A stretch of 64,000 nucleotides of DNA from an uncultured Christensenella sp. (lineage in GTDB: Bacteria > Bacillota > Clostridia > Christensenellales > CAG-917): NCBI GenBank assembly GCA_910577815.1, contig CAJTNO010000003.1, positions 178,431-242,430 of the forward strand, given 5' to 3'. Of the stretch, positions 48,333 to 60,751 are shown piece by piece. Position numbers and translations under genes: made by a program. The notes under the pieces were generated by a model. That model did not search any database, was not told the DNA's origin, and worked only from the letters and a program-made list of their open reading frames with translations. Positions within the stretch are counted from its first letter, which is position 1; each line of letters begins with the position of its first letter.

Positions 48333-48361
48333 ATTAAAAATAAATTCGGCTTAACGCCGAA
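48333..48361 (-). terminator. intrinsic terminator closing the four-gene SipW/McrB-like operon
   Basis: Minus strand reads TTCGGCgttaaGCCGAAtttatttttaatc. It lies 38 nt after the stop of the last gene. Confidence 0.6.
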
Positions 48362-48398: not shown

Positions 48399-49091
48399 CT
48401 ATTTTTCGTCACCGCCGTCTTTATTCCGCGACGTTAAAATCTCATCCAACAAACGCTTCTTTTGCTCGTCCGTAAGGTTATCAATAGAGCTTGCGTCAAG
48501 CTTAGCCGACTTGGATTTTTCCGCCGCGACCTTATCCTGCACAAATCCTACAATAATAAGTACTCCCACAATACTCAAAGGTAAAGCGATAAGCAAAACA
48601 TATCCGTACCAATGGCTTAAAAATCTTCTGAGCCCTCCGATAAATACGGATTTACGCACAAATTTAGCTTTAACCGAATCGGGACTGAGCTGCCAGTTGT
48701 CAACGCCGACGTTGGGATTGTCGCCCTTGGTTATAAAATACTCCACGGCTCCGTTCTCCGCACGGTGAACCTCTATTATTCTATGAGTAATATTCTGCCC
48801 CTTAAGCACGCCGCTCGGAGCGACAAAGGTGATTATATCCCCCTCTTTTAACGCGTTTTTGTCGTCAATGCTCTTGCAAAGAATGACGTCCGCAGGCTCG
48901 ATAGTTCCCGACATACTGTCCGTAACCACGTCGTACATATAATATCCGAAAATCTTAGAATCTCCGCCGTTCTTGCGTTGCGCAAGCATCAAGGATACAA
49001 TCACAACCAAAAATACAAAAATCACCGCAATAATCGTTGTGGATACAATGTTGTATATTTTCTTTGCTTTGGTCGGTTGCGGCTTGCTCAT
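48399..49091 (-). CDS. SipW-type (S26B, Ser/His/Asp) signal peptidase I, paralog 2
   Basis: 230 aa. N-terminal TM helix, TDSMSGTIEP (Ser), ITHRII (His), KGDNP (Asp), a C-terminal TM helix and a ~45-aa cytosolic tail. Its start codon is 2 nt after the stop of the 751-aa gene. Confidence 0.85.
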   Translation of the reverse strand: MSKPQPTKAKKIYNIVSTTIIAVIFVFLVVIVSLMLAQRKNGGDSKIFGYYMYDVVTDSMSGTIEPADVILCKSIDDKNALKEGDIITFVAPSGVLKGQNITHRIIEVHRAENGAVEYFITKGDNPNVGVDNWQLSPDSVKAKFVRKSVFIGGLRRFLSHWYGYVLLIALPLSIVGVLIIVGFVQDKVAAEKSKSAKLDASSIDNLTDEQKKRLLDEILTSRNKDGGDEK

Positions 49092-49093
49092 TT

Positions 49094-51349
49094 TTATTCT
49101 TTGCCCTCGCCGCTACCGTCCTCTGCTTTTTTTGCGCCGTCCTTAGCAGTATTTGAATGCGGTTGCTCCGTACCGTTTGATATTTCCGCTTTGCTTTTAA
49201 GGTTGGCGGGACGCTTTCTTCCCGTATTTGCAACAAACATAGTGTCGTATGGCAACTGACTGCCGTCGGTAAATCGAATAGAGCCGATACCAACCTTGCT
49301 TTCGTCTACGACGTCTATTTTTTTCGGGCGCTTCGGTTTAGCGGGAGTAATGTCCGCTTTGGGTTTATTCGTAGTTTGCGGATTCTTACGGTTACTCGGT
49401 TTTTTCTCCTCTTTTACCTCTTTGTTATCGCCGACTTCGGCAACATCCTTCTCTGCCGCAAGCTCCTCCGCAACCTCTGATTTTTCAGATAAAGCTTCAG
49501 CTTTATCTTCCGTAGAGCTATTCTCTACGGTTTCAGGCGCATTCAAGTCCTCGCTTGTTTGCGCAATATTTATATCCTGCAACACGTCGTCAGAAATGTT
49601 TTCTCCGGTATTTTCTTCTACTGCGACGCCTTCCTGCTCGGCTGTCTTTGCCGTCTCCAATTCCTCAAGCTTTCTTCTGCGCTCCTCGGCAAGCACGGCT
49701 TCCTTCTTTTCCGCGGCAATCTTTGCGCGCTGATATCCAAACGGGTCAATGCCGAAGCGAAGTTTACTCTTATCCTCCGCCGTCACCGTCTGCTCCAGCT
49801 CCTTACGCAGTTTATTATAGGACTCCGCACGCTTAGCCATATCCTCTTTACGGCGGCGTATACGATAGTTCCTATCCTTCTCGTCAACCTCGTCCTGCTT
49901 GATAGTACGGTATGCATTAAGACAACGGTCGATAGCGTCCTTAACCTTGGAAATATCCTCGGCTGTAAGTCTGTCGTCCTCGGGCTTCTTGTAAAGCTTT
50001 CTTACTTCAAACAGATGCTTATCGAATTTATCGGCGTCATCGTCGATATCGGGCTCCTCCTGGTCGGCTTTAGGCGGCATTTCCTTTATAATCTCCACCT
50101 CTACGCGCTTTTCGACCTCTACCTCCTGCACTATCTCCTTGCCGCGCTTGGACTGCTCCTGCGGAGTAAATTCCGGCTGCTGCTCAGGCTCCTTTTCGGG
50201 TTCCTTTTTCGGCTCAATCTCATCGGGCTGCTCGGTGGGCGCAGGCTCGTCGTTCTCATTCTTATGCGTTTCCTCGAGATTGTCCTTTTCGTCCTCGTTT
50301 TCCAGCTGCTCGTCTAACTTTTGAGCAAACTCGTCGCGGTTGAGCTCGTCCTTTTCAAAGTCCATTTCTCCCACGCGCAGGAAATCGCCGAACTCCTTGT
50401 CCTCCATATCCAAATCGGTCTCGTGCTGGTCGTACATACTTTCAAAAAGCATAGTATTTAAGGTGACCATATTCTTGAGTTCGTCTACGCTTTCGCCGTC
50501 TATGTCATAATCCTCCACCTCGTCGGAGGTAGAAAAACCGCCCGATACGTTATAGGTTTCTATAAACTGCCACAGCGTAAGCGCCTTTTTAAAGTTAGGC
50601 TCCTTCAATATGACGTTTGTACGCATAATGGGCGGTCTCACGGGCGCGGAATTGCGCATAGATTTTGCAAAAGAGGATGATAAAAAGTCGGTTATAATTC
50701 TGTCTATTTTGGCAACGCGCTCGATTTTAGTCAAGGTCTCCGGGTCAAGGCGCATTACCTCGTCAAAGCTGAGCTGAGCAAAATATTCCGTTCGGAAGGT
50801 AACCTTTTTACTTGGCAGACTAAAGCGCGACTCCACGTCCAACGCCAACACGTCCTGCGTTGCGGATGCCTTTTTGATTTTGTCGTAGCGCATAGTGACA
50901 AAATCCTTAAGCTTTAACAGCAAGGTGTATATAAAGCGGTTTTCGTAAATCTCGAATGATTCTTCCTTTGTAATATTAAGTATCTTGCTTGGCGTAACCA
51001 TTCCGTCCTTATCGACCTTGGAAATCATATTGGTATGCTGCGCGAGAAACTTGACCGATTCGGTAGAGATACTTCGTGCAAGCGATACGTCCACGATATC
51101 CTCTTCCTGAACGATAAACTTACGCGGATTACGCACAATCGTATCGAGATTAGGCAAAATTTCTTCTATTGTATCAATCCAATCAATGGAAATGTCCTGT
51201 ATAAGCCTTTTTTTTGCAAGCTTAAAGCTTGACGAGCCTTTATCGACGCGCTTTTTAAACTGCTCGTAAAACTCCTCGTTTTTCAGAACGGATACAATCT
51301 TATGAGCGTATTGCTTATATACGTCTTTTGTGATTTGGTTATCTGCCAT
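49094..51349 (-). CDS. 751-aa hypothetical protein: folded N-terminal ~270 aa in the McrC position with no nuclease motif seen, ~330 aa of Glu/Asp/Lys-rich low complexity, then a basic Lys/Pro tail
   Basis: RBS GGAGAG. No signal peptide or TM helix. ..EESFEIYENRFIYTLLLKLKDF.. recalls the N-terminal helix of McrC-type partners. I could not find a hydrophobic-(D/E)xK nuclease core. The central region reads EQLENEDEKDNLEETHKNENDEPAPTEQPDEIEPKKEPEKEPEQQPE... Confidence 0.8.
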   Translation of the reverse strand: MADNQITKDVYKQYAHKIVSVLKNEEFYEQFKKRVDKGSSSFKLAKKRLIQDISIDWIDTIEEILPNLDTIVRNPRKFIVQEEDIVDVSLARSISTESVKFLAQHTNMISKVDKDGMVTPSKILNITKEESFEIYENRFIYTLLLKLKDFVTMRYDKIKKASATQDVLALDVESRFSLPSKKVTFRTEYFAQLSFDEVMRLDPETLTKIERVAKIDRIITDFLSSSFAKSMRNSAPVRPPIMRTNVILKEPNFKKALTLWQFIETYNVSGGFSTSDEVEDYDIDGESVDELKNMVTLNTMLFESMYDQHETDLDMEDKEFGDFLRVGEMDFEKDELNRDEFAQKLDEQLENEDEKDNLEETHKNENDEPAPTEQPDEIEPKKEPEKEPEQQPEFTPQEQSKRGKEIVQEVEVEKRVEVEIIKEMPPKADQEEPDIDDDADKFDKHLFEVRKLYKKPEDDRLTAEDISKVKDAIDRCLNAYRTIKQDEVDEKDRNYRIRRRKEDMAKRAESYNKLRKELEQTVTAEDKSKLRFGIDPFGYQRAKIAAEKKEAVLAEERRRKLEELETAKTAEQEGVAVEENTGENISDDVLQDINIAQTSEDLNAPETVENSSTEDKAEALSEKSEVAEELAAEKDVAEVGDNKEVKEEKKPSNRKNPQTTNKPKADITPAKPKRPKKIDVVDESKVGIGSIRFTDGSQLPYDTMFVANTGRKRPANLKSKAEISNGTEQPHSNTAKDGAKKAEDGSGEGKE

Positions 51350-51429
51350 AACTCTCCGAAATCACCCGACCTATCAAAGCATAAGCGTATAAGGTCGGAA
51401 TTATATAGCAACGGCATAAGCCGCAAGTA

Positions 51430-52944
51430 TCAGAACAGCTTTTTCAATCTGTTGATATACTCCTTGCTCTCCTGCATATTTTCCTCGCCGAACAGCTCGC
51501 TGAGATACAGCACAAGCCCGTCTATTTCGTCGCGGATATAGGACAGGTTAAGCGACTCGAACTTTCTGAAAATCTTATTGCAAAGCACGTAATCCAGTCC
51601 ATCGAGTTCGTTTCCGCCGCAACCTACGTAAGAAGGAACAAACTCCTTAAGCTGCTTTACGATACGGTTGCCGAACGCCAGTCGGAAATGCTCTATAACA
51701 TAATCGTCCAGCTGATTTATCTTGTCAAGATTGTCCTGCGACACCTTATACAACTCCTGCGACTTTTTAAACTCAGCCTCGAGGTGCTTATAGCTTATAA
51801 ACAGATTGTCCTCCCAAGGCGCCTCGAATGCGATACCCTTGCTGTTTATGTTGATAGGCATAGCACGGTCGTAAACCTTATCCGAGATAGCAAAGGTCGA
51901 GTCGTCGTTGTTTGCGGTGCCTATAAACCACATATTCTGCGGAAGCTGAAATCTGCCCTTTTCAATATGCTTGGGGTCGTTCGGCCAGCCTGACGGAACA
52001 AGGTCGACAATCCACTCGTCGCGCGAGGGCATTTCGAGTATGGACAGCATTTCCGCAAAGTAGTACTCTACACGCGCTATATTCATTTCGTCGAGAACGG
52101 TAAGATAAATCTGGTCGTTCCAGGTAGCCTCGTACATCTTTTTAAGCACCTCGGTTTCATTGAAGCGCTTTGTAAATTCGTTGAAGTAGCCGAACAGCTC
52201 CGTACGGTCTCTCCAGGACGGCTGAACCGACGCAATCGTTGCGGGATTGTTTAAGAAAATTCCCATCGCGTGCGGCAAAGAGGTTTTACCCGTACCTGAT
52301 ATACCCTGCAAAATCAACAGGCGCGACGTCGACAGACTTGCAACAAACAGCCTTATTATTCGCGGCTGATAAAACAGCTTCATACGCGAGCAGGCAAAGT
52401 TACGGAACTTATCGCAAAACTGCGGTAGAGTAATTTCGTCGTCGTAAACGGGCGGAACGTAATTTTCGTAAATCTTATCGATTTCGGTAAGCTTATAAAA
52501 ACGCGATTCTCCGCTTGGGCTTTTCTCCTTGCCTTCCTCGCCCTCGGGCGCTTCCTCACCCTCGTACTTTCCTATGTCGCTGACGCGCATAGAAAGTATG
52601 CGGTCCTTTTCCGCACTCATTTTAATAATCTGCTTTTTAAGGTTGGCGCACTCCTCTACTAAGTCCTGCGGCAATACCTTTGCCTTGCCAAGCTTGGCAA
52701 GCTTGCGAAGTCCAAGCGCGATAAGCACTATTATGGACACTATTACGGCAACGATTAGTATAATGAAAATTATAGCGACAGCCCATTCGCCCGCACCGAA
52801 GTACTGAGTATAATTCTTGAATGCGTCGGAATACCCATCATTATAAAAGATGTGTAAAAAACCCCAGAAAATACTACCTAATCCCTTGTCGTAAAACGCT
52901 CCTAAAAACGCTTTAAGAAACTCAAATACAAGATTGATATTCAT
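51430..52944 (-). CDS. membrane-anchored McrB-like AAA+ (AAA_5-type) NTPase
   Basis: 504 aa. TM helix AVAIIFIILIVAVIVSIIVLIALGL followed by RKLAKLGKAK, a coiled linker, Walker A LQGISGTGKTS, McrB-style Walker B/NxxR region LTVLDEMNIARVEYYFAEMLSILE, then FIGTANNDDSTFAISDKVYDRA. Confidence 0.8.
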   Translation of the reverse strand: MNINLVFEFLKAFLGAFYDKGLGSIFWGFLHIFYNDGYSDAFKNYTQYFGAGEWAVAIIFIILIVAVIVSIIVLIALGLRKLAKLGKAKVLPQDLVEECANLKKQIIKMSAEKDRILSMRVSDIGKYEGEEAPEGEEGKEKSPSGESRFYKLTEIDKIYENYVPPVYDDEITLPQFCDKFRNFACSRMKLFYQPRIIRLFVASLSTSRLLILQGISGTGKTSLPHAMGIFLNNPATIASVQPSWRDRTELFGYFNEFTKRFNETEVLKKMYEATWNDQIYLTVLDEMNIARVEYYFAEMLSILEMPSRDEWIVDLVPSGWPNDPKHIEKGRFQLPQNMWFIGTANNDDSTFAISDKVYDRAMPININSKGIAFEAPWEDNLFISYKHLEAEFKKSQELYKVSQDNLDKINQLDDYVIEHFRLAFGNRIVKQLKEFVPSYVGCGGNELDGLDYVLCNKIFRKFESLNLSYIRDEIDGLVLYLSELFGEENMQESKEYINRLKKLF

Positions 52945-53080
52945 AGTCCTAAAATATTTATTCTAAAACGCTTACGCAAATGCCATCCGTATAGAGAAGT
53001 ATGTAAAGTCTTGTGCAAATGCACTGATTTGCTTGCGCAAGCAACGGATTATTTCTCCGTCATTTTCCCCGCTTACTATA

Positions 53081-54088
53081 TTATTCGGCTTTATCCGCAT
53101 CGATACCATCGCCGATTACGTCGACCTTCTGTTCGGGCGCGGCGCTGCCTTCAGACTCTGCATTTTCAACTTCGGTCGCAATTTCGCCGCTTTCCGAATT
53201 CTCGACGTTCTCCACACTCTCGGAAGTAGAATCTGCAACGTCGGCTTCCGATTTTTGAGATGCCAAAAGCTGCGCGATAAGCGCCTGCTTTTCCTCCTCG
53301 GTCATTGCGTCAACGGAAATAGCCGTCTCTCCCGCAACCTTCTTTTCTTTTTCGAGCTTGGCAATAATGAGCGTGCGCACCAAAATAAACGCGTAAATAA
53401 CAAACAGCAATATAAGCGGCAGCACAATCAAACAGAAAAAGCGGGTTTTGCCGTGTATGGGATGCTGCATAAAGTTTGCAAGACCGCCCACTCCCTTGAG
53501 CATTTTACCGCTTGTAAAATTCAGATTTTCGTCAACATCGCCCCAGGTTGCCACTACATCGCCGACAACCACCTTGCGCAAATCCCAGGAGGATTGGTCA
53601 ACTGCGGACATATCGTCCCCGTCCTTTACGGCGCAATCCTGCCAGTTTCCCTCCTGATTGTCGCCCCTCGTACGTAAAGCGGCAACCGAACCGTCCTTAT
53701 TCCTTTCGATAGCTACTAATCTGTGTGAATTAAACTCGTCGTAGCTGTCGCCGTTTTCGTATGTACGGACAAACTTAAACGTAATGACCTGACCGACCTT
53801 CAAGTCGGAGCCGTCTCCTTCATAGGCTTTGGCAATTATAACGTCGTCTGTGTCGAAAGTGGGCTTCATCGAATCCGACGCGACGTTAAAATAGCAATTA
53901 TCGCCCACACGGGTTATCTTATCGGGATTGGTAGAGCGGATTATAGTAAAAATCGCCACCACTAAAGCAAAAATAATCAAAATTATACAAAGGACGTTAA
54001 CAGTCCAGTTAAGCGCAATCTTGACCTTTTGTTGCGTAGGCGTAAGCTCCTTCTTCTCATTTTGAGAAGACTTTTCAAACAGTTTCAT
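53081..54088 (-). CDS. SipW-type (S26B, Ser/His/Asp) signal peptidase I, paralog 1, with a long acidic C-terminal tail
   Basis: 335 aa with the RBS AAGGAG. N-terminal TM helix, ASDSMKPTFD (Ser), NSHRLV (His), RGDNQ (Asp), a C-terminal TM helix (aa ~216-243), then ~90 aa of Glu/Ser-rich tail. Confidence 0.85.
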   Translation of the reverse strand: MKLFEKSSQNEKKELTPTQQKVKIALNWTVNVLCIILIIFALVVAIFTIIRSTNPDKITRVGDNCYFNVASDSMKPTFDTDDVIIAKAYEGDGSDLKVGQVITFKFVRTYENGDSYDEFNSHRLVAIERNKDGSVAALRTRGDNQEGNWQDCAVKDGDDMSAVDQSSWDLRKVVVGDVVATWGDVDENLNFTSGKMLKGVGGLANFMQHPIHGKTRFFCLIVLPLILLFVIYAFILVRTLIIAKLEKEKKVAGETAISVDAMTEEEKQALIAQLLASQKSEADVADSTSESVENVENSESGEIATEVENAESEGSAAPEQKVDVIGDGIDADKAE

Positions 54089-54273
54089 AAAACTTTCTCC
54101 TTATGCCGTGTTGCGCCCTCTCCCAAGACTTTTTGCCATAACCGATGCGACTCCGCACCGCCGAGATAAAACTCAACCGCTATTGACGTCACCGAGCCAT
54201 ACTTATTGTCCTTAAAAGCATAACGCCCTTCACCCGAATGACTTTGCTGTAGTATAGATTTCTATACGTTAGA

Positions 54274-54302
54274 ATTATAAAAGATTTCGTACACTATGTC
54301 AA
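54274..54302 (-). promoter_or_regulatory. perfect consensus sigma-A promoter TTGACA-17 nt-TATAAT driving the four-gene operon
   Basis: Minus strand reads TTGACAtagtgtacgaaatctttTATAAT. The -35 is at 54297-54302 and the -10 at 54274-54279. The first ATG of the operon is ~185 nt downstream. Confidence 0.75.
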
Positions 54303-54357
54303 TATACAAATATTAAAATTATTTAATAAAATCTATATAAAAATCAAAATTTCAAGT

Positions 54358-54392
54358 GTTTTAAAATGAAAAGCACCCGCCTTCGGGTGCTT
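54358..54392 (-). terminator. intrinsic terminator after the EF-G paralog, insulating it from the downstream operon promoter
   Basis: Minus strand reads AAGCACCCGaaggCGGGTGCTTttcatttt. Confidence 0.8.
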
Positions 54393-54422
54393 TCGTTATT
54401 TAAGCTATAAATAATGTCTGTT

Positions 54423-56471
54423 TTATGCTTCGCGTGATTTTGCGTCGGCAATAATCTTATCGTTATTCATTGCAGGCACTTCCTCATAGCGCACGAGATG
54501 CATTTCAAACTTGCCTCTGCCCTGCGTCATCGAGCGCAAATCGGTTGCGTATCTAAACATTTCCGCCTGCGGAACCTCCGCAGTAATTATCTGCTTGCCG
54601 TTTGCCATATCCGTGCCGAGGATTCTGCCTCTGCGCTTATTCATATCGCCGAGAATATCGCCGAGGTACTCGTCTGGTACGGTGATTTTAGCCTCCATAA
54701 TAGGCTCGAGGAAGCAAGGCGCCGCCGCCGCAATTCCGTCGGCATACGAAAGCTTCGCCGCTGTAACAAACGCAATTTCCTTACTGTCTACGGGATGGTA
54801 TTTCCCGTCATACAGAGTAGCCTTGAGATTTACCATAGGATATCCCGCAAGCACGCCGTGCTTAATAGCCTCTCTAAGTCCCTTTTCAACCGCGGGAATA
54901 AACTGACGGGGAACCGCGCCGCCAACTACCGCGTCGACGAACTCGAATACTCCGTCCTCTGCGCCCGGCTCGTACTTGATGAATACGTCGCCGTACTGTC
55001 CTGCGCCGCCCGACTGCTTCTTATGCTTTCCTTCCGCCTGCGCGGTCTTCTTTATGGTTTCGCGATACGCAACCTTTGGCTCCTGCCAGGAGATGTCTAT
55101 GCCGAGCTTTGCCTTTACGCGCTTGCACATAATATCAAGCTGAGCCTCGCCCAAGCCGCTGATTAGCACGTCGCCGGTTTCCACGTTCTTCTCAACCTTG
55201 AACGTCGCGTCCTCCTCCTGCATTTTGATTAGCCCCTGTATAGCCTTTTCCTCGTCCTTCGCCGCCTTTACAGCGTATGAAATTACGGGACTCGGGAACT
55301 CTATCTTCTCATACACAAGCTTATTTCCGTTAGCCGCAAGCGTATCGTTCGTATTGGTATATACAAGCTTTGCAACCGCGCCGATATCTCCGGCGTTAAG
55401 GCTGTCAACCGTTTCCTGCTTCTTACCCTTGAGGATGTAGAGCGCGCCGACCTTTTCGGGCTTATCCTGCGAATTGTTGTAAACGGAATCGCCGCTTGAA
55501 AGCTTGCCCTGAATAACCTTGAAAATAAGCAGCTTGCCTACGTACGGGTCTACAACCGACTTAATTACCTGCGCGCTGAACGGAGCCGAGCCGTCTACGC
55601 CGATTTCCTTGATATCACCGTCTACGCTCGCTTTGATTTTATGCACGCGGTTGGGAGACGGCATAAGGTCCACTATCTTTTCCATAAGTCTGGCGACGCC
55701 CTTTGAAGTTATCGCGTTGCCCGCCATAAGAGGAATAAATACCTCGCCCGCGATAGCGGCGTGAAGTCCCTTCTGTATTTCTTCGTTTGTGAACTGCTCG
55801 CCGTCAAAGAACTTCATCATAAGCTCCTCGTCGGTTTCGGCAATCATTTCCATAAGCTTGGCGTTATACTCGTCAACGTCGGCTTTCATTGCCGCGGGAG
55901 CGTCTATAGCCTTGCCCGCAAGGTCGTACGCCTTGCCTGTAAGCACGTCTACGGAGCCGACCATAGCGCCGCCTTCCATAATGGGAAGCTCAACGGGAAC
56001 TACGTTGTTATACTTTGCCATTATAGCTCTTGCCGTTCCGTTGAAATCGGAATTATCCTTATCGACCGCGTTTACAAATATAAATGTAGGTATCTTTTTC
56101 TCGCCGCACAAATCGAGTGCCTTCTCGGTGCCGACGGTAACCGAGCCCGTAGCCGAGGTAACCACAATAGCGCTGTCCGCCGCCTGAAGCGCGGATTGCA
56201 TCTCGCCTTCGAAATCAAAAAATCCCGGAACGTCCAAAAGATTTATTTTTACGTCGCGATACACCGCGTAACCGAGCGCAAGAGATATGGAAATTTTACG
56301 CTTTATTTCTTCGTCGTCGTAATCCATAGTTGACGAACCGTCGTCAACCTTGCCAAGACGGGAAATGGTTTTAGCCTCGAACATAATAGCCTCGGCAAGC
56401 GACGTTTTGCCCTCTCCCGAGTGTCCGATAAGTGCGACGTTGCGAATTGAATCGGTATCAAAAGTTTTCAT
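54423..56471 (-). CDS. elongation factor G-family GTPase (EF-G paralog)
   Basis: 682 aa. G1 GHSGEGKTS, DVPGF, NAVD, and EF-G domains II-V by length and motif order. The N-terminus differs from canonical FusA (no AHIDAGKTT). Confidence 0.88.
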   Translation of the reverse strand: MKTFDTDSIRNVALIGHSGEGKTSLAEAIMFEAKTISRLGKVDDGSSTMDYDDEEIKRKISISLALGYAVYRDVKINLLDVPGFFDFEGEMQSALQAADSAIVVTSATGSVTVGTEKALDLCGEKKIPTFIFVNAVDKDNSDFNGTARAIMAKYNNVVPVELPIMEGGAMVGSVDVLTGKAYDLAGKAIDAPAAMKADVDEYNAKLMEMIAETDEELMMKFFDGEQFTNEEIQKGLHAAIAGEVFIPLMAGNAITSKGVARLMEKIVDLMPSPNRVHKIKASVDGDIKEIGVDGSAPFSAQVIKSVVDPYVGKLLIFKVIQGKLSSGDSVYNNSQDKPEKVGALYILKGKKQETVDSLNAGDIGAVAKLVYTNTNDTLAANGNKLVYEKIEFPSPVISYAVKAAKDEEKAIQGLIKMQEEDATFKVEKNVETGDVLISGLGEAQLDIMCKRVKAKLGIDISWQEPKVAYRETIKKTAQAEGKHKKQSGGAGQYGDVFIKYEPGAEDGVFEFVDAVVGGAVPRQFIPAVEKGLREAIKHGVLAGYPMVNLKATLYDGKYHPVDSKEIAFVTAAKLSYADGIAAAAPCFLEPIMEAKITVPDEYLGDILGDMNKRRGRILGTDMANGKQIITAEVPQAEMFRYATDLRSMTQGRGKFEMHLVRYEEVPAMNNDKIIADAKSREA

Positions 56472-57526: not shown

Positions 57527-58390
57527 TTAATTGTGAAAAGCTCTGTTGATAGCGGTAGCAATTACGCCGGCTGCGGCATTTACCAAAAAGTCTATTTCCT
57601 TAGGCGCAACCACCAGATGCGACAAATCCTTTTCAACCATTTCCGCCCTTAAACGGTATTCGTCCACGGTTATTTCCATCTTGGATAGATAATCCTTTAC
57701 AAACCCGTAAACGGCAGTCCGCATAGACAGCATAAGCGGCACACCTATGGCGATTACAGGCACGCCCAAAACGCTCTTGTCTATTCTCTGCTTGTCCTGT
57801 CCCACGCCTCCGCCGGGAGATATTCCTGCGGTGCTTATCTGAAACGACGTACCCACCCGTGAAACCGTACCCGTTGCAAGGCTGTCTATGAGTATGACCG
57901 CGCACGGCTTTACTTTGTCGGTTACCGCGCTCGCTATATCCGCCGACTGCATTCCCGTAGTTCCCAAGACGCCGGTGGTCATCGCGTATACGCATTGCTT
58001 TGTGTATGACACTGGATATTCCTTTGTAACCTCAACGCCCTCTACCGCGCGCTGTCCGAGCGCGTCCGCAATTACACCGCCGTTGCCCAAGCCTATAACC
58101 AGCACGGGAGTTGTTTTACGCACCGTTCCTATAAGTCCGGCAAGCGCAGTCGCAATATAAGCGGCAAGGCTTTTTAGAGCTTTTTCACTGCCGTAAACGT
58201 TCTTCGGGCAATCAAAGGTAATATATACGCCTCTGTCCCGACCTATCTGCTTGGCAAGCTCCAGGCTCTTAATGTTTAAGTAGTGCTGTACAATCCCGCA
58301 GCCAAGCTCCGTGCGCTTGCTAAGCTCTCCAAGTCCGCCGGCTTCCGCCGCCTCGATAGCCATATCCGAAATAAAATCGATATTTTTCAT
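57527..58390 (-). CDS. gpr: germination protease GPR (spore endopeptidase, A25 family)
   Basis: 287 aa. ..DMAIEA.., VLVIGLGNGGVIADALG, GVLGTTGMQSADI, IDSLA, STAGISPGGGVG, LGVPVIAIGVP. Adjacent to rpsT as in Bacillus. Confidence 0.85.
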   Translation of the reverse strand: MKNIDFISDMAIEAAEAGGLGELSKRTELGCGIVQHYLNIKSLELAKQIGRDRGVYITFDCPKNVYGSEKALKSLAAYIATALAGLIGTVRKTTPVLVIGLGNGGVIADALGQRAVEGVEVTKEYPVSYTKQCVYAMTTGVLGTTGMQSADIASAVTDKVKPCAVILIDSLATGTVSRVGTSFQISTAGISPGGGVGQDKQRIDKSVLGVPVIAIGVPLMLSMRTAVYGFVKDYLSKMEITVDEYRLRAEMVEKDLSHLVVAPKEIDFLVNAAAGVIATAINRAFHN

Positions 58391-58846: not shown

Positions 58847-60751
58847 CTACTCCTGCGAAGTATTCTTTCTTTGCTTATGACGATAGATTACAACCGCGGC
58901 AACCGCAAAAGCAAACACCGATACTATAACGCCCACTACTATAGTAAATATTTTTAATTCGTAAGTGCGTGCATAATCCGCCTTTCGTCCCCCGACAATA
59001 AAGCGCGCCGCCTTACCTTCAAAGCCGTTTACCTCGATTTCAATTTCATAGGTGCCCTTCTGAGTAGGCGTAAAATCGAAGCTATTTCCCTTATGATTGT
59101 AAACTCCGTTTACAAACCACAGACAATTATCGGCATCCTCCTTGGGTATATAATTAAGACTGTCAACGGTCAGCTTATAAGTTTTTCCGACCTCGCAACC
59201 GGACAAATCCTTTAACGGATTTCCGTTTAAGCTTGCGCTTATTTCAAATGAGGATACATTCTCTGCCGTGACAAGCATATATCCAACGGATATTCCTACG
59301 CTTGCCTCTTTTACTGCTTCCTCGCCGTGTTCGTCACAGCTATGCCGCCAAACCGCTCTAATCTCCGTATCGCCTACAACCGGCTTAGGCATATACGACG
59401 CTTCAAAGCCTTCCGCAAATTTATCCTCTCCCGCAAACCACTCTACCTTACCCTGTCCGTAATGCGACAATGGCACAACGCTCAGTTTTAAAGGTATAGC
59501 TTTTAAAGCTCCCAAACGTTGTTTTAACAACGAAACGTCTGCCGTTTCGATTTTTGCCTCGCACATTGTATATCCTATTAACGCATTTAAATCAAAAATC
59601 CTGCAATCGCCTACCGTCTTTCCACCCTCGGTTTTATTAAGAACCTTAGTCGAAGCTTTTTTCACGAGTCTTGCAAGCTCAACGGAATCCATTTCCTCGC
59701 CGTTATTTCCCGCCAACGCCTTATATTTCATTGCAAGCAGCGCCGCGCCGAATGACACTATCGGAGCAGCCATACTTGTTCCCGACAGAGCTTTATAATC
59801 AAATCCGCTATCGCCAATCACACCGTTTGCGCTGTATATATCAGCCCCCGGAGCGCACAAATCATATCCGTAGGTATTCCAAAAGCCGTAATTTGACGTA
59901 TTACTCAAAACCGCTTCGCCGTTTACGTTCTTGTAGTTCATAACTCCTATAACATTAGGAAGCGCCGCAGGATAACGCTTGACCTCGCTTCCGTCATTCC
60001 CTGCCGCGGCAACAAGCACAGCTTTGGTATGCGCCGTGGACTGGTCCAAGCCCGCAAACGTCCTCGCATCAGACGATAACGACATATTTATTACGTCAGC
60101 GCCCTGCTGTAAGGCAAAATCGACGGCGCTTTTAACGTCAGCGCCCGAAAATTTATCCTCTCCCGTAAATGCTACGTGATAGGACGCTTTTATAGGCAGA
60201 ATTTTTATATATCGCTCTATATTAAGGGCGTGTATCAATGTTGCCACAATGCCTGCAACGTGCGTGCCGTGCCTTCTGTTTTCATCATCGGACACATCGT
60301 TCTCGGTATATATGGAGGGATTATGCGACACTGCTGTATTCTTAACAATAGGCGTGCCGTCTGACCTGCGCAATATTACGTCGTATTTCCCTGTTCCGTT
60401 GTTATCTACGGCTTCGTTATCCGTAAGCCCGCCGTCATTGTATTTCCCGCTAAACAGCTCGTGCTCAAGATTTACTCCGCTATCTATTACAGCTATGACA
60501 ACAGGATTATCTTCAAGATATTTAAAATCAAAAGAATCGTCCTGCTTCCAGTCTTCAACCGCAGCTTTAAGTCCGTCTATTCCTATTACGTCCGACCACC
60601 AGTCAAGCTCCTGATTTTGCACCTTATCCACATAACTAATCGGCAAAAGAGCGTCGGCAATTTCATAAGAAAACAAAAATGTAAGAATTGCGCTTAAAGC
60701 AAACGCAATTAAGAATACATATAGAGCTTTTCGCTTAAAACTGCTATGCAT
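58847..60751 (-). CDS. cell-surface subtilisin-family (S8) protease with N-terminal signal/anchor and C-terminal TM anchor
   Basis: 634 aa. VIAVIDSGV, HGTHVAGIV, GTSMAAPIV. A beta-rich (Ig-like?) C-terminal region is followed by the TM helix IFTIVVGVIVSVFAFAVAAVVIY and RHKQRK. Confidence 0.88.
   Translation of the reverse strand: MHSSFKRKALYVFLIAFALSAILTFLFSYEIADALLPISYVDKVQNQELDWWSDVIGIDGLKAAVEDWKQDDSFDFKYLEDNPVVIAVIDSGVNLEHELFSGKYNDGGLTDNEAVDNNGTGKYDVILRRSDGTPIVKNTAVSHNPSIYTENDVSDDENRRHGTHVAGIVATLIHALNIERYIKILPIKASYHVAFTGEDKFSGADVKSAVDFALQQGADVINMSLSSDARTFAGLDQSTAHTKAVLVAAAGNDGSEVKRYPAALPNVIGVMNYKNVNGEAVLSNTSNYGFWNTYGYDLCAPGADIYSANGVIGDSGFDYKALSGTSMAAPIVSFGAALLAMKYKALAGNNGEEMDSVELARLVKKASTKVLNKTEGGKTVGDCRIFDLNALIGYTMCEAKIETADVSLLKQRLGALKAIPLKLSVVPLSHYGQGKVEWFAGEDKFAEGFEASYMPKPVVGDTEIRAVWRHSCDEHGEEAVKEASVGISVGYMLVTAENVSSFEISASLNGNPLKDLSGCEVGKTYKLTVDSLNYIPKEDADNCLWFVNGVYNHKGNSFDFTPTQKGTYEIEIEVNGFEGKAARFIVGGRKADYARTYELKIFTIVVGVIVSVFAFAVAAVVIYRHKQRKNTSQE

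Follow-up and report, generated by a model that had tools for sequence, protein, structure and literature searches.

The window analysed here is a stretch of 64,000 nucleotides (nt) from an uncultured Christensenella sp. (assembly GCA_910577815.1, contig CAJTNO010000003.1, positions 178,431 to 242,430); positions are counted from its first letter. On its minus strand lies a cassette of four genes in the order sipW, mcrB-like, mcrC-like, sipW. The mcrB-like gene (51430..52944) is predicted to encode a membrane-tethered McrB-like AAA+ GTPase of the NxD branch, its neighbour encodes a partner with an McrC N-terminal domain, and the two outer genes encode SipW-type signal peptidases. We consider it very probable that this cassette belongs to the CoCoPALM class, the name given by Bell et al. 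(eLife 2024; PMC11090510, section 7) to systems in which an NxD-branch McrB GTPase is fused to an FtsB-like module of a transmembrane (TM) segment and a coiled coil. The reading that joins this membership to a function in the processing or assembly of surface fibres is the one we favour with some confidence, while for such a function taken by itself the chances are about even.

The GTPase gene is an ATG open reading frame (ORF) of 504 residues, and the interval that a sequence-only reading of this DNA had singled out, 51430-52944, coincides exactly with its bounds. Residues 150-504 (51433..52497) form an AAA+ module with a helical lid, as judged from the alignment to Escherichia coli McrB and from a confident alpha/beta fold in the AlphaFold model. 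The module contains a Walker A motif GISGTGKTS (residues 214-222; 52279-52305), a Walker B motif VLDEMN (residues 283-288; within 52081-52107), the signature ANNDDST, that is N345-x-D347-D-S-T, in GTANNDDSTF (residues 342-351; 51892-51921), and a candidate arginine finger, R360, in DKVYDRA (residues 355-361; 51862-51882). All four stretches had been quoted in the sequence-only reading, and all are present in the ORF. The alignment to E. coli McrB pairs Walker A, Walker B, the asparagine sensor and one arginine. In the close family G214, K220, T221, D285, N288, N345, D347, S349, T350, R360 and R427 show no variation, and position 348 holds either D or E; among 150 representatives at 50% clustering the family-wide motif is x-N-x-D-(D/E)-S-T-(F/Y). 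In the description given in section 7 of Bell et al. (PMC11090510), the NxD branch of McrB GTPases has its signature shortened from NxxD to NxD, usually with E or D as the next residue.

Searches of sequence and structure databases point in the same direction. The sole protein-family match of note is to NCBIfam McrB (PRK11331, E 6.6e-7). Among PDB sequences the only significant matches are to E. coli McrB (6hz4, 6ut6 and 7vsr; E ~6e-7 to 1e-6, residues 189-395), and a Foldseek search with the AlphaFold model ranks McrB from the E. coli McrBC complex first (6ut6_D, E 6.9e-6), with Thermococcus McrB among the top six. The sequence-only reading had placed the core in the McrB/AAA_5 family and suggested a search with profile hidden Markov models. 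In that search McrB comes out best, AAA_5 reaches only E 0.0036 in Pfam, under its gathering score, and the Pfam scan of the 504-residue protein gives no match to MoxR (AAA_3). On sequence grounds the protein is thus an McrB-family NTPase with its catalytic motifs intact.

In front of this core stands a membrane anchor. No domain match was found in residues 1-149, where a DNA-binding or modification-reader domain was looked for, in agreement with the earlier proposal that an anchor takes the place of the DNA reader. Residues 54-79 (WAVAIIFIILIVAVIVSIIVLIALGL; 52708..52785) are called as a TM helix from hydropathy, the AlphaFold model and conservation, with a 19-residue Kyte-Doolittle mean of 3.7, where ~1.9 is the cut-off used for TM calls. 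The helix is followed by the basic flank RKLAKLGKAK (52678-52707), with a charge of +5, while the residues before it are net acidic. The topology is based on hydropathy and the positive-inside rule, by which the C-terminal bulk of the protein with the NTPase should be cytoplasmic, as had been proposed. Exactly one N-terminal TM segment is present in 78 of 79 full-length orthologues, all from different species (the remaining one has two), so the helix is not a chance feature. Neither of the two outcomes named as refuting the sequence-only reading, a best match in another AAA+ clade or the lack of a predicted TM helix, was obtained. Further, the same N-terminal sequence opens the ORF in two orthologues that are 83-90% identical (L006 and L007), and in the alignment of orthologues (A2) residues are near-invariant from position 9 onward.

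The AlphaFold model, built with 57 homologues, has a mean predicted local distance difference test (pLDDT) score of 75 and shows helices at residues 3-27, 51-86 (pLDDT about 80) and 92-122. Of the amphipathic segment that the sequence-only reading saw in the first ~90 residues, the helix is borne out by the model; the hydrophobicity of residues 1-33 is weak (Kyte-Doolittle about 0.9). The juxtamembrane helix, residues 92-122 (52579..52671), is predicted to be a coiled coil, as deduced from the modelled helix and a heptad register of L95, L102, M109 and I116; E98, L102, E112 and K113 are invariant in A2. It leads into an acidic linker, residues 123-149 (52498-52578), that is predicted by AlphaFold to be disordered, with pLDDT <50 across residues 117-145. 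For the N-terminal module an hmmscan against Pfam gave no FtsB or DivIC match at E <= 1. The coiled coil of FtsB is periplasmic, whereas that of the cassette GTPase is predicted to be inside the cell, and the resemblance to FtsB may be architectural only.

The partner, a protein of 751 residues (49094..51349), is encoded directly downstream of the GTPase. Its residues 7-161 (50867-51331) match the McrC N-terminal domain (DUF2357, PF09823) in Pfam with E 5.2e-8 and 32.9 bits, against a cut-off of 23.3. This domain sits within a conserved N-terminal region of about 345 residues that is about 85-93% identical in homologues, which are themselves annotated as DUF2357 proteins and are 650-1245 residues long in total. 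The last ~440 residues are rich in E, K and D and have a net charge of -38. In the AlphaFold model of the whole partner (mean pLDDT 50) the region after DUF2357 is all-helical at low confidence, with confident long helices at about residues 463-575. There is no match to a nuclease in Pfam, NCBIfam or PADLOC, and a motif scan found no credible PD-(D/E)xK; PADLOC gives no match of any kind for the partner, and no sensor domain was recognised by Pfam or by a profile search of the PDB.

These results bear on the model that was implicit in the sequence-only reading, namely a membrane-tethered, Type IV restriction-like McrBC that acts on DNA and meets its target at the membrane. An McrB-like core next to an McrC-like partner is what such a system would contain. 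However, no DNA-binding domain, PD-(D/E)xK motif or other nuclease was detected, the signature is the NxD variant and not NxxD, and the operon mates are signal peptidases, so we regard this model as highly improbable. The notion of a target at the membrane is not supported either: DUF2357 is the only domain matched in the partner, the unit contains two SipWs, and its relatives are found among SipW-dependent secreted proteins.

The tail of the partner (49097-50419) is hypervariable in length between species. It contains conserved islands at residues ~434-520, at 533-537 (G-x-DPF) and at about 681-689 (VDESKVG; 49235-49318). In one contig of an RNA library 69 nt of the tail are skipped in frame at 49979-50049, which suggests strain-level variation in length.

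Both outer genes of the cassette encode signal peptidases I of the SipW type, that is the endoplasmic reticulum (ER)/archaeal type. The upstream one (335 residues; 53081..54088) matches TIGR02228 with E 2.7e-11 and NF046067 with E 3.9e-10, has TM segments at residues 32-50 and 219-237, and carries the motifs SDSMKPT, SHRLV and GDN. The downstream one (230 residues; 48399..49091) starts 2 nt past the stop codon of the partner, matches NF046067 with E 3.6e-25 and TIGR02228 with E 4.7e-19 (above the cut-off of the latter), has TM segments at residues 19-37 and 165-183, and carries DSMSGT, THRII and GDN. With their Ser/His/Asp motifs kept, both peptidases are predicted to be catalytically intact.

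The stretch after the second TM helix of these peptidases should be cytoplasmic. In the SipWs of such cassettes it contains an amphipathic motif, ~K(K/R)AIEEYLAxQ, at times in two or three copies; in the window the corresponding stretches are MTEEEKQALIAQLLASQ in the 335-residue protein (53255-53305), where the cytoplasmic tail is acidic, and LTDEQKKRLLDEILTS in the 230-residue protein (48429-48476). Among 113 SipW tails from loci L004-L083, a loose regular expression for the motif matches 66, while in 200 shuffles it never matched more than 4, and many of the tails that it misses are obvious variants. The McrB/McrC-like complex could possibly dock at this motif.

To place the cassette among its relatives we searched 1.84 billion cluster representatives exhaustively with HMMER. 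Clusters related to the AAA+ protein number 8149 at E <= 1e-3, and 747 remain at the stricter E <= 1e-30. By hydropathy the best 150 fall into three groups: the nearest, of ~450-580 residues, have one or two N-terminal TM segments, those of ~550-680 residues have four, and those of ~700-870 residues are soluble. When every GTDB species was scanned through a single genome, at least 596 of these genomes proved to carry a relative that is 50-90% identical. Carriers are mostly Christensenellales, Oscillospiraceae, Acutalibacteraceae and Ruminococcus, with R. flavefaciens MC2020, Ruminococcus sp. FC2018 and Eubacterium ruminantium FB3002 as cultured examples. The identical AAA+ protein is indexed in about 700 assembly blocks, and such conservation suits structural machinery better than a gene in an arms race.

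The gene neighbourhood is conserved as well. ORFs were called in 81 loci from different species and classified with phmmer. The partner lies directly downstream of the AAA+ gene in 66 of 68 loci, and a SipW directly upstream in 51 of 67. A SipW is found within 8 kb in 58 of 59 loci, two SipWs in 31 of 59, and at least one member of a secreted family that we call Sub in 56 of 59. Relatives with four TM segments (L084-L163) occupy a different but related conserved locus, for instance L095:5493-16884. It comprises two secreted proteins with the signal …GFA(S/A)W…, a SipW-like protein of ~340 residues and the 4-TM GTPase, and further a protein of ~420-460 residues in the position of the partner, an ABC ATPase, a permease of ~530 residues, an anchored protein of ~810 residues and a lipoprotein of ~370 residues.

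The Sub proteins are an unannotated secreted family, first seen in L001 (5471-7141 and 11465-15064), with 172 ORFs in L001-L083, and they are the candidate substrates of the SipWs. Most of their signals have a basic n-region, a hydrophobic core and the sequence (S/T)(A/S)T(Y/F)A-W-F, in which A, W and F are invariant (…ATYA|WF…), and the C-terminal end reads W-x-EG-x-D-x-x-C with an invariant Cys. An aromatic residue at P2' is reported in PMC10269814 to make TasA dependent on SipW and not on a LepB-type peptidase. One paralogue type, S1, is without the AWF motif and has the appearance of a membrane anchor that stays uncleaved, recalling TapA beside TasA. In L006 and L007 the Sub genes are directly upstream of the first sipW.

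In E. coli McrBC the N-domain of McrC plugs the McrB hexamer and stimulates GTP hydrolysis. By analogy, six McrB-like subunits of the cassette could assemble beneath the membrane as a ring enclosing one partner, whose N-domain would sit in the pore and stimulate GTP hydrolysis. Each subunit would be anchored by its single-pass helix, with the coiled coil, linker and AAA+ module in the cytoplasm, and in the partner the nuclease would be replaced by the long, charged and partly coiled-coil tail. Ring and partner may then dock to the cytoplasmic tails of the SipWs, possibly also to the tail of an anchored S1-type subunit, and GTP hydrolysis might serve to gate or power the steps by which proteins with TasA-like signals are processed, released or polymerised in an ordered way into a surface fibre or "pilus".

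A bolder form of this proposal is that the cassettes represent an unrecognised machine for surface filaments of Gram-positive bacteria. A GTP-driven motor docked through the SipW tails would control both the cleavage and the ordered polymerisation of a new family of proteins, with a mature WF start and a W-x-EG-x-D-x-x-C end; it would be widespread in gut and rumen Clostridia and have a 4-TM variant coupled to an ABC transporter. We put this form forward tentatively, as a possibility that falls short of an even chance.

Several points weigh against a CoCoPALM-type machine for surface fibres. In Foldseek, MCM, NorQ, dynein and Lon come within one to two orders of magnitude of McrB and the TM-scores are low; NorQ and dynein rank under McrB by a small margin, so that the structural comparison is consistent with McrB and weakly discriminating. 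The loss of the nuclease rests on absent matches, because the model of the partner has a mean pLDDT of 50 and its profile finds low-complexity noise only, and no McrC, in the PDB. No similarity of the Sub proteins to TasA or to an entry of Pfam, NCBIfam or the PDB could be detected (the best match of a Sub profile to PDB or Pfam, an endoglucanase, has E 0.087), and for this reason the fibre is something that we infer. To our knowledge the known SipW-dependent fibres, TasA and BsaA, need no NTPase, and we know of no experiment on any CoCoPALM system.

Nor is there a Sub-type gene beside the cassette itself. None was found in the 64-kb window by motif scans, by tblastn with the substrates of the 83-90% identical relatives or by going through all ORFs that have a hydrophobic segment at the N-terminus, and none in a relative that is 95% identical. 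The cassette of the window is a minimal four-gene form without adjacent substrate genes. Two DNA runs (X15 and X16) contain a strain ~99% identical to the window, and in these, short matches to Sub queries fall on a contig other than that of the cassette. They cover, in the right order, the conserved C-terminal end of Sub359 and then the region of the signal peptide in Sub383/Sub347, as a tandem that resembles Sub359 and Sub383 of the 90% relative (compared with L007:3350-4083 and L004:1061-1101). The depth of this contig, which is 66.6 kb long in X16, compares with that of the cassette contig as 19.8 to 19.1 in one run and 46.8 to 49.1 in the other. Short matches on a contig of equal depth suggest that the genes for the substrates lie at another place in this genome.

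That the core four genes persist in the window without adjacent substrates would also suit a module for membrane quality control or regulation, in which the AAA+ ring extracts cleaved signal peptides or uncleaved anchors, or switches SipW on and off, for example by a cytoplasmic signal read by the partner tail. AAA+ rings commonly remodel or extract proteins, the conserved cytoplasmic tail motif of the SipWs suits regulation, and synteny supports it just as it does the fibre model. However, the pore of McrB-type rings is known as the place where McrC binds, and not as a channel for threading substrates (Niu et al. 2020, summarised in PMC11090510), and the partner contains no sensor domain recognised by Pfam or PDB profiles. 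Much of this explanation is shared with the fibre model, and by sequence the two are hard to tell apart; we regard such a module as quite unlikely, and prefer a role in fibre processing or assembly.

The McrB-family core itself also leaves room for a function in defence. The nearest PADLOC family of the AAA+ protein is PDC-M26A, a candidate defence protein (E 8.8e-37), which speaks against a role in fibres; the soluble relatives match it over a longer span than the TM forms do, and the clade is placed beside the CoCoNuT defence systems in section 7 of Bell et al. (PMC11090510). The cassette could thus be an McrBC-derived, membrane-associated system against phage or for abortive infection, in which the tethered GTPase and its partner sense an invader (injected DNA or a phage protein) and set off an effector other than a nuclease; the signal peptidases or damage to the membrane are conceivable. 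However, no nuclease, HEPN domain, methyltransferase or other known effector was detected in the unit by Pfam or PADLOC, the surroundings are housekeeping genes and not a defence island, and the sequence is very highly conserved in the same context across hundreds of assemblies. PDC-M26 is itself only a candidate system, and a literature search found no paper that mentions it. A defence function would further leave unexplained the near-universal linkage to SipW and to secreted proteins with dedicated signals. We therefore judge it unlikely, and retain the fibre-related function as the preferred explanation.

The four genes appear to form one transcription unit that is transcribed in the mouse gut, as suggested by a consensus promoter, a terminator-like hairpin and a spanning contig. 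The promoter, TTGACA-17 nt-TATAAT (54274..54302, minus strand), has 12 of 12 consensus matches, and ahead of it lies a hairpin that ends the upstream EF-G-like gene (54370-54393). At the other end, before comM, a hairpin scan and the sequence itself identify a terminator-like hairpin with a T-run (48345..48361, minus strand). In a metatranscriptomic library from mouse gut (X3) one contig of 5711 nt spans 48564-54252, and thereby all four genes, and its end lies about 20 nt past the -10 box. Separate contigs of this library, with differing depths, hold EF-G and comM, and RNA-library contigs break between about 48157 and 48563. The X3 contigs are strandless and DNA carry-over is possible; the breaks at both intergenic regions fit an RNA origin.

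The leader of the first sipW, from the predicted transcription start to the start codon, is ~175 nt long (54089-54268). A riboswitch in this leader was considered and rejected: there is no Rfam match, and the predicted folding is no better than that of shuffled sequences (z -1.3). Two intergenic positions differ from all public runs examined. At 52951, 7 nt upstream of the start codon of the GTPase, the runs lack one base, and at 54345, upstream of the promoter, they have an extra A.

The window as a whole is a housekeeping region, with mraZ/mraW, tig-clpP-clpX, hslVU, trmFO, topA, dprA, comM, a murI-like gene, rpsT and the EF-G paralogue, and a prophage or defence-island context finds no support in these neighbours. 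In the 95%-identical relative, and likewise in assemblies with the identical protein, the four cassette genes again have the EF-G paralogue on one side and comM-dprA-topA on the other. Upstream of the cassette are the EF-G paralogue (54423-56471), a germination protease (Peptidase_A25; 57527-58390), which implies a spore-former, and a membrane-anchored subtilisin-like S8 peptidase (58847-60751). In Christensenellales comM-dprA-topA adjoin the cassette, and a link to competence was therefore considered. It was rejected because the adjacency is lineage-specific, because the terminator-like hairpin and the breaks of the RNA contigs separate the units, and because the neighbour of ~530 residues in the 4-TM loci is a membrane permease beside an ABC ATPase and not ComM.

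McrBC is the textbook modification-dependent restriction enzyme, and here a large, strongly conserved branch seems to have shed DNA reader and nuclease alike and to have relocated to the membrane beside signal peptidases. If true, a defence motor would clearly have been put to new use in the biogenesis of the cell surface. It would also add an NTP-dependent step to the assembly of fibres of the SipW/TasA type, which is currently thought to be free of an energy source. Should the function be in adhesion or biofilm formation, it would bear on the colonisation of the host, given its presence in the gut and rumen Clostridia genomes counted above and its transcription in the mouse gut.

When the cassette is compared with known systems, the fibre operons tapA-sipW-tasA of Bacillus subtilis and sipW-bsaA of Clostridium perfringens resemble the loci related to that of the window in three respects. 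A dedicated ER/archaeal-type SipW is encoded beside its clients, the signals of the clients end in small-x-A followed by aromatics, and cleaved subunits occur together with an uncleaved anchored paralogue, as TasA does with TapA. In contrast, the fibre operons are without an NTPase, the Sub proteins are dissimilar to TasA, camelysin and BsaA, and the cassette loci usually have two SipW paralogues, each with a conserved cytoplasmic tail.

The CoCoNuT/PDC-M26A proteins are the closest soluble relatives of the AAA+ module (E about 1e-37 to 1e-44), belong to the NxD branch and also have coiled-coil extensions. They differ in being soluble, with long N-terminal regions and HEPN or other nucleases, whereas the cassette has a TM anchor, no nuclease detected and SipW neighbours.

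With E. coli McrBC (6ut6, 6hz4) the cassette shares the AAA+ fold, in which Walker A and B, the asparagine sensor and the candidate arginine finger align, and a partner with an McrC N-domain; an assembly of hexamer and plug is likely by analogy. However, the cassette GTPase is without the DNA-reader N-domain and is tethered to the membrane, its signature is NxD(D/E)ST compared with MNxxDRS, the partner is without a detectable PD-(D/E)xK, and the operon mates are signal peptidases.

The closest agreement is with CoCoPALM. Section 7 of Bell et al. (PMC11090510) links this class to signal peptidases and to pilus assembly and describes both the McrB and the McrC homologues as usually having coiled coils; it gives CoCoPALM one paragraph, without experiments or a description of substrates, and defers the analysis to a later paper. 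A literature search found no such follow-up, and the text of the eLife supplement does not mention CoCoPALM. In the window the GTPase is of the NxD branch (N345 and D347 invariant, D or E at 348) and has the N-terminal layout of a TM segment (54-79) followed by a helix (92-122), here a juxtamembrane one. SipW-type peptidases lie directly upstream and downstream of the pair, and the adjacent DUF2357 partner (E 5.2e-8) has long helices at 463-575. The difference is that this cassette is minimal, without adjacent genes for secreted proteins; no feature examined speaks against membership of the class. A TM-anchored McrB architecture is not new, since CoCoPALM has already been described. The 4-TM variant is absent from the CoCoPALM paragraph, and the link of membrane-anchored NxD McrB-like GTPases to SipW-dependent secretion thus reaches past the clade presented there. 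The four genes should be annotated as a CoCoPALM-type cassette and not as a restriction system.

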